Positions 1,009 through 8,397 of a stretch of 8,950 nt of DNA are shown in pieces. A program made the position numbers and the translations under genes. This DNA comes from a virus (Duplodnaviria > Heunggongvirae > Uroviricota > Caudoviricetes). Below the pieces are notes generated by a model, which worked only from the letters and a program-made list of their open reading frames with translations, was not told the origin of the DNA and made no database searches. Each line of letters opens with the position of its first letter. The first letter of the stretch is position 1. The stretch is taken from the IMG/VR virus record IMGVR_UViG_2534681939_000020, positions 1 through 8,950 of that record; one strand, written 5' to 3'.

Positions 1009-1686
1009 TCATCCCCGCCCGATAACCACCACTTTCCCGTCTCCGCCCTCATCACGGGTGCTGATGTCCTGGGATATCCGTCGTGAACCAACCAGCATTT
1101 CACCGTAAGGCACCGGCATCGGGTTCCCCTGGGCAATCATGTTATCCAGCGAGGAAAAGTACGTGTTCTGTCTGCCGTTATCCGTTGCCCTGTATTCCGG
1201 TGTTTTTGCCTTCGGGGCAAGCATCTGAGCCACACCACCCAGTATCATGCTGGCACCCAGTGAAAACAGCATCGTGGTGGCAGAAAAACCGCCGGCACTC
1301 AGCGCTGCACCCCAGGCTGCCATCGATGCTCCGGCCGTGAAGAAAGAGCCCACGATGGCCGCCGCCCCCAGCACAATCTGCAGTCCACCCTTTCCGGCCC
1401 CGGCCAGTCGCGGCACAATGTGGATGACCGTTCCCTCACCCAGCTGTTCGTGAAGACGGGCGTACACCGCCTCCGGTGCCGTGTCATCACCGGCAATACG
1501 TATCTGGTACCAGCCTTCGTTCATCTGACGGCGGAATCCCGGCATCTGCATCGACAGGGCACGGATGGCTTCCGCTGCCGTGTTCACATACAGGCTGAGG
1601 CGGCGGCCAAATCGTTGTAAATCCCCGTGAAGGCAGATACGTGCCAGTGGCGGTGACGCCAGGCTGAATGCGTTCGTCGTTGCCAT
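1009..1686 (-). CDS. I: Tail tip assembly protein I
   Basis: 225-aa ORF colinear with lambda gpI as recalled (MA..LASP..ARICL.GDLQRFGRR...NTYFSSLDNM.AQGN...YGEM.VGSR..SQ.IST.DEG). Its 5' end overlaps the 3' end of K by ~100 nt, as in lambda. Confidence 0.9.
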   Translation of the reverse strand: MATTNAFSLASPPLARICLHGDLQRFGRRLSLYVNTAAEAIRALSMQMPGFRRQMNEGWYQIRIAGDDTAPEAVYARLHEQLGEGTVIHIVPRLAGAGKGGLQIVLGAAAIVGSFFTAGASMAAWGAALSAGGFSATTMLFSLGASMILGGVAQMLAPKAKTPEYRATDNGRQNTYFSSLDNMIAQGNPMPVPYGEMLVGSRRISQDISTRDEGGDGKVVVIGRG

Positions 1687-2320
1687 TTTTCGGAATACCT
1701 CTCCCGTTTACTCAGTTGTTCAGGCAGATGGTGAAGCAGTTCACCGTTGCCGCAGTAAATGGCGGCATGATTGGCCACCGATGCGCCAAAGCAGCACAGC
1801 AGGATATCGCCAGCCTGTGCAGAGGCAGGGAAACCCGGTAAAAGCCTGTGACCGCCATATTGTCCAGGTAAAGGTTCTGACCGTTGCGCCACCAGTCATC
1901 CTCACGCTCAAAATCCGGCATATCAATTCCCGCCAGATGGTAGGCATCCCGGAACAGCGTGTAACAGTCCGTCACCCCGTGCTCAAAGCGCCGTCCTGTC
2001 AGATGTGGCACACAGCGGAATTTATGAATTTCCCCCCGACAGACCAGCCACCAGGACAGTGCACTTTTTATCTGCAGCCGCCGGTCGGCCTCGCTCAGCC
2101 AGGGCAGACCACCGGGATGACTGTGGACCAGTGCCACAATCTCCCCCTGCATTTCTGCCCGCAGCCAGTCCTCCGGCGACATCCGGAAATAATCTTCCGG
2201 CTCACCGGAGATATTCACGCAGGGAAAATATCTTTCCCCTTCCGGCGTTCTCACCACGAAGCCGCACGACTCCGCTGGCGCACATCGCCGGGCGTGCGCC
2301 AATATATTGCTATAGAGCAT
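1584..2320 (-). pseudogene. K: Tail tip assembly protein K (JAMM/MPN + NlpC/P60 domains), reading frame broken once
   Basis: ORF 1712..2320 carries the N-terminus with the JAMM motif HSHPGG...SEAD and the NlpC/P60 Cys (GVTDCYTLF). ORF 1584..1892, in another frame, carries the NlpC/P60 His region (NHAAIYCGNGELLHH) and the lambda-like C-terminus (SKRERY..KWQRRTHS.WRHR). The frames switch inside 1824-1831; adding one base to the GGG run at 1828-1830 gives ...YRVSPASAQAGDILL..., matching lambda ...YQVPLSAAQPGDVLL.... Could be a sequencing error rather than a real pseudogene. Confidence 0.8.
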
Positions 2321-2331
2321 GAGAACTCCTG

Positions 2332-2355
2332 ATAAAAACCCAGCCGAAGCTGGGT
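2332..2355 (-). terminator. Rho-independent terminator after the BRO-N gene, immediately upstream of the K ribosome-binding site
   Basis: Minus strand reads ACCCAGC-TTCG-GCTGGGT (7-bp stem, tetraloop) then TTTTATC; it lies 19 nt past the BRO-N stop (2376-2374). K's AGGAG and ATG (2320) follow directly. Confidence 0.6.
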
Positions 2356-2373
2356 CATTTCGTTGGCAATCTG

Positions 2374-3252
2374 TTAGTAGTGATGCGGTGAAGGAGGTAA
2401 TTCTTTATTCTTAAGTCTCATCCATGCGGAAAGATTCGTTGGTCCGTCTGGCTCATTGATATCAACATCTCGTGTGTGATTAATTAAAACGTCTCTCGCC
2501 ATTCCAATAACATACGAGAACTCATGACCGTAGTCGTAGCATCTGCCGGAATAGTTCGATTGAATTTGTTTTAGCGCCGGATACAGTTCGCGGAATAATG
2601 CCTGTGAGCGGTTGGCATAATCCCATAGCCATGCAAGGCTGTTTGCTTCTTTTGCGGAAAGCTCGTTGGTGCTCTTCTCTTGTTTGCCAATGAATTCACC
2701 TTCAAGCACTACCCTGTGGATGTACTCTACGGCAAGCGGGATTTGTTCAATTGAAAGCTCATCAATGCTGTCAATACCAGAACGCTGATGAACCATATTG
2801 TATGCATCGTCATTGCGAAGTCCTTTCTTTCCTACCAGCATGTTTACTGCATCGCGTAGCGGTGTTCTTTCCTCAACAATGGTTTTCTTTCCTTTTACAT
2901 ACTCGCCATGTTTGCGAATTGAAGGCAGAACTTCTGCTGTTACCCACTTGCGGAATTTGTGCGGGACTGAACCTTTATTGACTGCATCGCGGCAGCGCAG
3001 AACCAATGTATACATACCTGATTCGCTCACAATGCTTAGATTCTGCTCACCACCAAGGGTGTAACTTAAAGTTACTCCCTTTTCATCGTCATCAAGTGCA
3101 GTAAGCGCCTTGCGTGAGTTAGTCAAAGCTAAAGCATCACAAACATCTTTAGCTACAAACCACGGCTCACCGCACTTGTTGATGACGCGGATTTCACTGT
3201 CGCCGAATTTGAAGATAGTGAAATCGTTTTGTGCCTTTGCTATACTTTTCAT
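2374..3252 (-). CDS. BRO-N domain antirepressor-like protein (292 aa) with a C-terminal ~170 aa I could not assign
   Basis: N-terminus [30 protein letters not shown]...[11 protein letters not shown] fits the BRO-N (Bro / phage antirepressor N-terminal) pattern F.F....IR.....GE.WF.A.DV...L. AGGAA lies 8 nt before the ATG at 3252. The gene is clearly more AT-rich than the flanking tail genes and has its own terminator, i.e. moron-like. Confidence 0.7.
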
Positions 3253-7700: not shown

Positions 7701-8028
7701 ACGCAAATTCATCCGATGACTGCGACGCCTGTTTCAGACGGGCATTCACGGAGCTCCACTCATCCGCCAGCGAAATCAGGCGTCCGGTGGCAAAGGCACC
7801 GGCAAACGCACCGGTCATTCCGACAGCCGAAGCGCGGATTTCCGTCAACTGGCTGTGCAGCTCAGCCAGAGCCCGGCGCTGCTCCCTGGCTGCCGCAGCA
7901 GCCTGACGTCCGCCATTCTGCAGGGTCCGGTAATATTCACTGCCCATACGGGACGCCCGCTGGATCTCCGACTGGAATGACTGTGAATTTGCCGAAATTT
8001 TGATAATCAGTTCACGTAACGTCGCCAT
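4783..8028 (-). pseudogene. H: Tail tape measure protein H, full length but split into four frame segments by three 1-nt indels
   Basis: Four colinear minus-strand ORFs: 7459..8028, 6219..7535, 5165..6193, 4783..5244. Together they give a tape-measure-like protein with the ITQFSQAL...LRGEEFNSV motif, a hydrophobic segment ([19 protein letters not shown]), coiled-coil-like stretches and a lambda-H-like C-terminus (NDGANGQIGPEA...RRDGGMLSG). Frame switches sit at homopolymers: T4 7542-7545, T3 6264-6266, C3 5189-5191 (plus strand). ATG at 8028 preceded by GGAGAAAGG. Confidence 0.85.
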
Positions 8029-8044
8029 TCACCTTTCTCCGGGC

Positions 8045-8070
8045 AAAAAAAACCTGCCACAGCAGGTTTT
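8045..8070 (-). terminator. Hairpin with long T-tract between T and H; terminator-like on both strands
   Basis: Minus strand reads AAAACCTGC-TGTG-GCAGGTTTTTTTT, ending ~10 nt before the H ribosome-binding site. On the plus strand the same stem is followed by TTTTCATCATTATTTAT. Confidence 0.45.
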
Positions 8071-8146
8071 CATCATTATTTATGACATTGCTGCAAGGCT
8101 CAGCGCGTCTTCCAGCGCCGCAAACGGATCCACCTCCGGCTTATCC

Positions 8147-8397
8147 TCATCCTCGCCCCAGCAGAGCATGGCGTCCTTCAGTGCAACATTCATCCCCTGT
8201 CGCCCCGAAAACCGCTTTCACGATCTGTGCATTACGGATATCCCCGCGCTCATCACCCAGCGGGGATACCCTGTCGAACTCCATCCACATCATCGCCTCG
8301 CTCGCACTCAGGCTGTGCCGCAGTTCGGATAAGGTGCGCCCCAGACGGAGCGCAAGTCGCATCAGAAAGCGAATTTCCGGGCGGGCTACTTTTTTCT
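8147..8397 (-). CDS. T: T domain of the G-T tail assembly chaperone, reached by -1 ribosomal frameshift from G; 3' end probably disturbed by a 1-nt indel
   Basis: The -1 frame relative to G is open from 8410 to 8147 and encodes ...VARPEIRFLMRLALRLGRTLSELRHSLSASEAMMWMEFDRVSPLGDERGDIRNAQIVKAVFGATG, which resembles phage tail assembly protein T. After about 8197 a third frame continues with protein-like ...MNVALKDAMLCWGEDEDKPEVDPFAALEDALSLAAMS to a stop at 8082-8080, suggesting one extra base in a C4 run (8194-8197 or 8203-8206). Confidence 0.65.

Follow-up and report, generated by a model that had tools for sequence, protein, structure and literature searches.

The tail modules of phage lambda and of lambdoid Stx phages, such as Enterobacteria phages 2851, YYZ-2008 and BP-4795, are laid out in the order V-G-T-H-M-L-K-I-J and share the families Phage_TAC_1, Phage_tail_T, TMP_3/Phage_HK97_TLTM/Tape_meas_lam_C, Phage_min_tail, Phage_tail_L, Prok-JAB with NLPC_P60, Lambda_tail_I and GpJ. 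The tail assembly chaperones of lambda, G and GT, reportedly arise through a programmed -1 frameshift; the lambda slippery heptamer is G GGA AAG. The stretch analysed here, called the window (8,950 bp in all), carries on its minus strand a module of the same type, V′-G-T-H-M-L′-[IS21 fragment]-Ant-K-I-J′, with 95-97% DNA identity to the three Stx phages. Both the gene order and the matching families, taken from the RefSeq annotation of the cognate locus and from Pfam, place it among the lambda-like siphovirus tail modules, and its Ant-like gene lies between L and K, as it does in several Stx phages.

The whole window corresponds to contig AIFJ01000031.1 of the draft assembly GCA_000249355.2 of Escherichia coli DEC3F, and the proteins encoded by it are recorded under the name "Escherichia coli DEC3F". 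The AIFJ project is given as "DEC 3F (493/89)" (PMC4959244); DEC3F is thus 493/89, a sorbitol-fermenting E. coli O157:H- strain. The contig starts inside J and ends inside V, both of which are repeated genes, and a query with the whole window finds 12 matching places in the 493/89 genome. The features of the window are the following.

1 to 768, minus strand: J, tail tip gene, 5′ part (RefSeq annotation of the cognate locus; Pfam FNIII-A_GpJ; paralog match)
1009 to 1587, minus strand: I, tail assembly gene, intact, 192 aa in RefSeq (the longest open reading frame extends to 1686)
1584 to 2320, minus strand: K, JAB and NlpC/P60 peptidase, broken in the window by one lost base
2374 to 3252, minus strand: Ant-like gene with Bro-N and P22_AR_C domains, intact
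3572 to 4199, plus strand: IS21-family fragment, left end and N-terminal ~146 codons of istA
4200 to 4449, minus strand: truncated L, first 83 codons
4449 to 4790, minus strand: M, intact
4783 to 8028, minus strand: H, tape measure gene, split into four open reading frames in the window by three 1-nt insertions
8080 to 8362, minus strand: T reading frame (RefSeq), broken by one inserted base
8386 to 8760, minus strand: G, tail assembly chaperone gene, intact
8389 to 8395, minus strand: slippery heptamer A AAA AAG in the last two codons of G
8766 to 8950, minus strand: V, major tail gene, 3′ end

The initial annotation had reported five 1-nt frame disruptions in T, H (three) and K, and these are indeed present in the record; when they are reverted, full-length T (93 aa), H (1080 aa) and K (245 aa) are obtained with no stops. 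Two explanations had been offered, sequencing artefact or a very recently inactivated prophage, together with the proposal to compare closely related strains. This comparison was carried out, and it strongly supports the artefact. The finished genome of 493/89 itself (NZ_CP038412.1) contains the same IS21::L junction and differs from the window by exactly five indels and 24 substitutions, with T (282 nt), H (3243 nt) and K (738 nt) all intact, so that recent inactivation of these three genes is not supported. An independent assembly of the same strain therefore reproduces none of the five indels and none of the 24 substitutions. Strain 3072/96 of the same clone, also O157:H- (CP028590.1; PMC6729007), has the same junction, lacks the five indels and agrees with 493/89 at 29/29 sites; its private differences, mainly G/C-run deletions, are found at other positions. 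It is thus very probable (about 0.93) that errors in the consensus of a small draft contig of DEC3F (493/89), bounded by repeats, account for the five frame breaks.

Base-level alignment of the window to NZ_CP038412.1 (1285748-1294694) placed the indels exactly. They are given below along with the neighboring or otherwise informative substitutions, in window coordinates.

1812 to 1832: error cluster in K, in which the lost A and substitutions at 1812, 1831 and 1832 fall within 21 nt
Between 1825 and 1826: A lost in K (reference GAGG[A]CAGG)
2633: V207A in Ant, private
4733: K20E in M, private; the variant protein is found on AIFJ01000031.1 only
5193: extra A in H, CCCG[A]CACCGGA, outside any homopolymer
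6264 to 6266: TT to TTT in H, the sole event of homopolymer type
7532: extra T in H, CTGG[T]CACCGGA, with an 8-nt context identical to that at 5193
7612 to 7624: four clustered synonymous substitutions, all matching the paralogous H at 2.29 Mb in the same genome
8201: extra C in T, CTGT[C]GCCCC, between two C4 runs and part of neither

All five events had been attributed to short homopolymers, an assignment that fails for four of them: only the T3 run at 6264-6266 was right. The other runs that had been named (G3 at 1828-1830, C3 at 5189-5191, T4 at 7542-7545 and the C4 runs within 8194-8206) are unchanged in length and lie 2-10 nt away from the true sites. The signature of homopolymer-length error on which the artefact had been argued was rejected on this alignment, since run length changes at 6264-6266 alone. 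Four of the five indels are insertions in the window, and the plus strand of the locus contains two GCACCGGA 8-mers, each of them interrupted by an inserted base at the same G|C step (permutation p ~0.0014); such a shared context for 5193 and 7532 is fitted better by a systematic error than by independent mutations. To our knowledge, single-base insertions outside homopolymers are the textbook error type of no common platform, a point that weighs against the artefact.

One true programmed frameshift is probably encoded in the module. At the end of G, as in lambda, there is a heptamer of the X XXY YYZ type, here A AAA AAG; it is in register, and the -1 frame reads through into T, so that this would be the natural G-T frameshift site, separate from the five breaks. 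It would represent a sixth, natural change of frame, absent from the finding of the initial annotation. Its presence might invite the idea that the breaks within T, H and K are also functional, through programmed ribosomal frameshifting or transcriptional slippage; yet a slippery heptamer occurs at none of the five sites, which read G[A]CACC, G[T]CACC, T[C]GCC and GAA[A]CGG on the coding strand plus the lost A, and the sites are missing from the finished genome of the same strain and from all relatives. Recoding at the five sites was rejected on these grounds, and its probability is close to nil.

The indels are private to the contig also at the scale of the species. In searches of 5,426 complete E. 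coli genomes with 81-nt queries around each site, the variant was absent from all homologous places, namely 226 for the K indel at 1825/1826, 2,686 for the extra A at 5193, 2,729 for TTT at 6264-6266, 2,039 for the extra T at 7532 and 2,799 for the extra C at 8201; the five indels were absent from eight related loci as well, so that they are shared neither by close relatives nor by the wider population. For the cluster in K, the best match among the 5,426 genomes reached 95.1%, and all four changes are therefore private. Protein records give the same picture: two of the H fragments of the window (189 and 342 aa), and likewise its variant forms of M and Ant, are each found on one contig, AIFJ01000031.1 only, and the intact 493/89 proteins are on record on at least 1,000 contigs for T, at least 1,000 for M, 465 for K and 16 for H. 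The intact H is the same protein as CAQ82049.1, "Minor tail protein H" in UniRef, and the gene is 3243 nt long in all relatives fetched. The N-terminal K reading frame (202 aa) has no exact match on record, the gene caller having chosen another start.

The locus had also been described as free of other decay, which does not hold, as 24 substitutions separate the contig from the finished 493/89 genome. Seven are amino-acid replacements, and six of these seven (H83R, V540D and L738P in H, P164S in K, K20E in M and V207A in Ant) are found in no other sequence compared. Eleven coding substitutions have no match in any of eight relatives, and six of them alter the protein, with L-to-P and V-to-D replacements among them. 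In another comparison, 11 substitutions, ten of them synonymous, match a paralogous prophage at 2.29 Mb in the same genome; this comparison covered one of the other copies in 493/89. Besides these paralog matches, at least ten substitutions are found nowhere else. Of the private substitutions, those re-checked (1812, 1831, 1832, 5814 and 6409) occur in none of the complete genomes searched, in which no paralog carries them or the five indels.

The paralogous alleles are distributed in patches. Five substitutions in J, at 4-316, all match a paralogous J of the same genome, and the J end is a mosaic in which cognate and paralog alleles alternate over few bases; given this alternation, the 2.29 Mb paralog cannot have supplied every shared allele by itself, and another copy must contribute besides it. 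A 71-nt query covering the substitutions at 7759 and 7781, run with a 28-nt seed, returned only 88 records and no exact match, so that one or both of these substitutions are probably present among other H alleles. With the exception of one, all 29 differences lie outside 2321-4449, the segment made up of Ant, the locus-specific IS21 fragment and L′ (28/29; binomial P = 0.004, events treated as independent).

These data also bear on the possibility that the decay is real and very recent, the DEC3F stock having gained five frameshifts, point mutations and gene-conversion patches after its separation from the stock of the finished genome. As L is already defective in this prophage, relaxed selection on T, H and K would be expected; the paralogous prophage has an H that is consistently annotated as frameshifted, with a deletion of 7 nt, indicating that decay of tail genes does occur in 493/89, and gene conversion could in principle account for the patches that match the paralog. 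However, 29 differences over 9 kb are far more than two cultures of the strain could plausibly have accumulated, the more so as a different isolate, 3072/96, shows zero substitutions relative to 493/89 over 12.3 kb except for one small patch upstream of J. The absence of the five indels and of the re-checked private substitutions from the complete genomes searched, and the 8-mer shared by two insertions, likewise argue against this account, which is very unlikely. A variant of it, in which two of the frameshifts fell on a sequence-specific insertion hotspot (the G|C step of GCACCGGA) and the patches came by gene conversion from sister prophages, deserves similarly little credence; if true, it would mean rapid decay of a dead prophage inside a strain collection. 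The DEC3F stock and the 493/89 stock of the finished genome are different cultures, which formally leaves room for real differences between them.

Conversely, the draft could be right and the finished genomes wrong, if the frames in CP038412.1 and CP028590.1 had been restored by polishing or by correction guided by paralogs. Errors are indeed present in long-read assemblies of this clone: before correction, CP028590.1 had 1,591 pseudogenes arising from G/C-run deletions (PMC6729007), and several such deletions remain in it at this locus. These errors, however, are G/C-run deletions at other positions, and two independent assemblies, each from a different isolate, show the same sequence at all 29 sites, with the finished state at the indel sites being that of every one of thousands of homologous copies. 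Moreover, the frameshifted H of the paralogous prophage persists in CP038412.1, so there was no blind repair of frames. An error shared by both finished genomes is thus extremely improbable.

The truncation of L is of a different nature. The IS21 fragment replaces 926 nt of the ancestral locus, comprising Arc-like genes and the 3′ two-thirds of L; besides the two finished genomes, short contigs of other samples carry the truncated L too, and the IS21::L′ junction reading frame is found on five contigs, the two finished genomes among them. Common to both finished genomes, this lesion is real, and L is a real pseudogene. Disruptions reproducible across independent assemblies are seen for L only, and not for T, H and K; as far as the sequence tells, the tail module is intact apart from L.

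The reading of the five breaks as consensus errors rests on direct observations: the strain is the same, the contig is discordant with two finished genomes, every indel is private and 11 substitutions coincide with a paralog. How the errors came about can be proposed with less certainty. The 493/89 genome holds several near-identical lambdoid tail modules, and the consensus of the contig may be a mixture of the true sequence of the locus, of short patches from paralogous prophage copies (the 11 substitutions, ten of them synonymous) and of isolated single-base errors (the five indels and the at least ten substitutions found nowhere else). Mis-assigned or low-quality reads during assembly might be the cause, with mixing of paralog reads, low coverage and platform chemistry as candidate contributions. 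In the organism, T, H and K would then be intact, G-T would be made by the usual programmed -1 frameshift at the A AAA AAG heptamer, and the sole real lesion of the module would be the IS21 fragment standing in place of the 3′ part of L. Tail-module pseudogene calls from old drafts of multi-prophage EHEC strains should thus not be read as biology, and a frameshift position guessed from nearby homopolymers is unreliable, as four of the five guesses here were off by 2-10 nt.

Among known assembly errors, those of the PacBio genome of 3072/96 (CP028590.1) are likewise single-base, ORF-breaking indels private to one assembly. There, the indels in V and H each remove one base from a G/C run (G5 to G4 and G4 to G3), unlike the window, where four of the five events fall outside runs. 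A further likeness is with the collapsed or chimeric repeat consensus of short-read drafts of multi-prophage EHEC strains, which is similarly bounded by repeats (here J and V) and to which the 11 paralog-identical substitutions correspond; pure paralog mixing, on the other hand, does not explain the five indels and the substitutions found nowhere else. Compared with the modules of lambda and the Stx phages, that of 493/89 differs in having L cut after codon 83 and the adjoining Arc-like genes replaced by the IS21 fragment, and to this the draft contig adds five frameshifts that are very probably spurious.

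Exact-protein look-up matched the window, in reversed orientation, to the whole of contig AIFJ01000031.1 (8,950 bp) in the NCBI draft assembly GCA_000249355.2; its proteins carry the name "Escherichia coli DEC3F", and AIFJ appears as "DEC 3F (493/89)", O157:NM, in a published strain table (PMC4959244). Every long ORF is encoded on the minus strand. In order, the window holds the 3' end of V (V'), then G, T, the tape measure gene H, M and a truncated L (L'), followed by a plus-strand IS21-family fragment, an Ant-like gene, K, I and the beginning of J; Pfam assignments and the RefSeq annotation of the cognate locus both mark it as a lambda-like tail module. 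The contig starts within J and ends within V, two genes that recur across the lambdoid prophages of 493/89, and 12 places in that genome are matched by the whole-window query. The longest version of the I ORF (1009-1686, minus strand; 225 aa vs 192 aa in RefSeq) starts 99 nt upstream of the RefSeq start and overlaps the end of K; both versions are present in databases.

Of 5,426 complete E. coli genomes, the one that best matches the window (99.7% identity), and the only record covering 100% of it, is the finished 493/89 genome, NZ_CP038412.1. It shares the IS21 fragment and the truncated L, and its annotation has T (282 nt), H (3243 nt) and K (738 nt) intact. Base-level alignment of the two gave exactly 24 substitutions and five single-base indels.

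Single-base indels of the window in the alignment to NZ_CP038412.1 (plus-strand positions)
between 1825 and 1826: K break, A lost
5193: H break, A gained
6264-6266: H break, TT to TTT
7532: H break, T gained
8201: T break, C gained

Since reverting the five indels restores full-length T, H and K without stops, the 1-nt disruptions described in the initial annotation are real features of the record. Their assignment to short homopolymers holds for 6264-6266 only, where the run itself changes; the other four are flanked by different bases, and the homopolymers named for them are unchanged in length and lie 2-10 nt off the true sites. Nor is the module free of other differences, as had been stated: of the 24 substitutions, seven are amino-acid-changing, and six of the seven (H83R, V540D and L738P in H, P164S in K, K20E in M, V207A in Ant) were seen in no other sequence compared.

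All five indels are absent from the finished genome of the same strain. They are also absent from the sorbitol-fermenting O157:H- strain 3072/96, whose PacBio plus Illumina genome, CP028590.1 (PMC6729007), is one of the five contigs carrying the L'-IS21 junction ORF; in a three-way alignment this strain has the finished 493/89 state at 29/29 sites where the window differs, and at every variable site the finished 493/89 sequence is supported by two of the three assemblies. The private differences of 3072/96 are one-base G/C-run deletions at other positions, an error type reported by its authors themselves (PMC6729007), and a small patch upstream of J. At its cognate locus (L011), leftover errors map to 1595, 3701, 4358, 4800 and 9677-9690: one-base G-run deletions fall within V and H, and a short stretch upstream of J is scrambled, owing to which H and V are missing from the gene calls of CP028590.1.

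When 81-nt queries, each centred on one indel, were compared with complete E. coli genomes, the window variant occurred in 0 of 226 homologous places at the K site, and in 0 of 2,686, 2,729, 2,039 and 2,799 at 5193, 6264, 7532 and 8201, respectively; the best matches differ from the window by exactly the gap, accompanied at the K site by three neighbouring substitutions. Among about 15 billion proteins, two window H fragments, the M variant and the Ant variant are found on one contig each, the intact versions on between 16 and over 1,000. The same-strain, same-clone, population and protein evidence all speaks against the indels being real in the organism. The comparison with related strains proposed earlier favoured the sequencing artefact over a recent inactivation of T, H and K, which are intact in finished 493/89. 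Real decay in the DEC3F stock is very unlikely, as 29 changes would have to separate cultures of one strain within 9 kb, while a different isolate of the clone has next to none in 12.3 kb. The least credible alternative is recoding at the five breaks, since they lack slippery motifs and are missing from the same strain's finished genome.

Twelve of the 24 substitutions also occur in other prophage alleles, and 11 of these 12 are synonymous. A second lambdoid prophage of 493/89, at about 2.29 Mb in NZ_CP038412.1 (L014, 5023-8954), agrees with the window at 11 of the 24 substituted sites (4, 82, 115, 286, 316, 4969, 5017 and 7612-7624), the patch of four substitutions at 7612-7624 being 100% identical, and has none of the five indels. 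Short paralog-like blocks are set, as a mosaic, into otherwise cognate sequence. At 4-316, five J-end substitutions equal a paralogous J of the same genome, interleaved with cognate alleles (82 paralog, 85 cognate; 281 cognate, 286 paralog); given this alternation, at least one further copy must contribute. No fetched sequence has any of the remaining substitutions; the changes at 1812, 1831, 1832, 5814 and 6409 were in no complete genome searched, and the pair 7759 and 7781 had no exact match, one of the two alleles probably existing in some other H alleles. Outside 2321-4449 (Ant, the locus-specific IS21 fragment and L') lie 28 of the 29 differences (binomial P = 0.004, a value that exaggerates the significance, as some events cluster).

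The 8-mer GCACCGGA has exactly two plus-strand copies in the locus, and in both a base has been inserted at the same G|C step (5193, 7532); by permutation, the probability that any two of four random junctions have an 8-nt context in common is about 0.0014. Systematic error fits these insertions better than independent mutations. The K error cluster, which also includes 1831-1832, sits on the similar GGCACCCGG, and the two motifs may represent a sequence-specific error context.

The five breaks are therefore best explained (probability about 0.93) as consensus errors of a small repeat-bounded draft contig, to which reads of paralogous prophages would have contributed one part and isolated base errors the rest. 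That both finished genomes were over-corrected is even less plausible than decay in the stock, as CP038412.1 retains a frameshifted H in the L014 prophage, with a 7-nt deletion equivalent to window 6302-6308. That prophage also has a different truncation of L and lacks K and I; it looks like a decaying tail module within the finished genome. The five breaks are no real biological feature, and they advise caution when pseudogenes are called in draft assemblies of multi-prophage genomes, and when the type of error is guessed from nearby homopolymers.

The tail module of this locus is predicted from its sequence to be intact except for L. The IS21 fragment (628 nt, 3572-4199, the istA N-terminus) came in exchange for 926 nt of the ancestral locus, comprising the Arc-like genes together with the 3' two-thirds of L. 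Strains 493/89 and 3072/96 share this lesion with short contigs from a few further samples, the only places where the junction ORF was found, and the rearranged stretch 3572-4449 looks like a clone marker for sorbitol-fermenting O157:H-. A sixth frame change, unmentioned in the initial annotation, is natural and not a disruption:

8389-8395, minus strand: slippery heptamer A AAA AAG at the final two codons of G; T is open in the -1 frame

By analogy with lambda G/GT, from which we take its role, this heptamer would be the normal programmed G-T frameshift site of the tail assembly chaperones.
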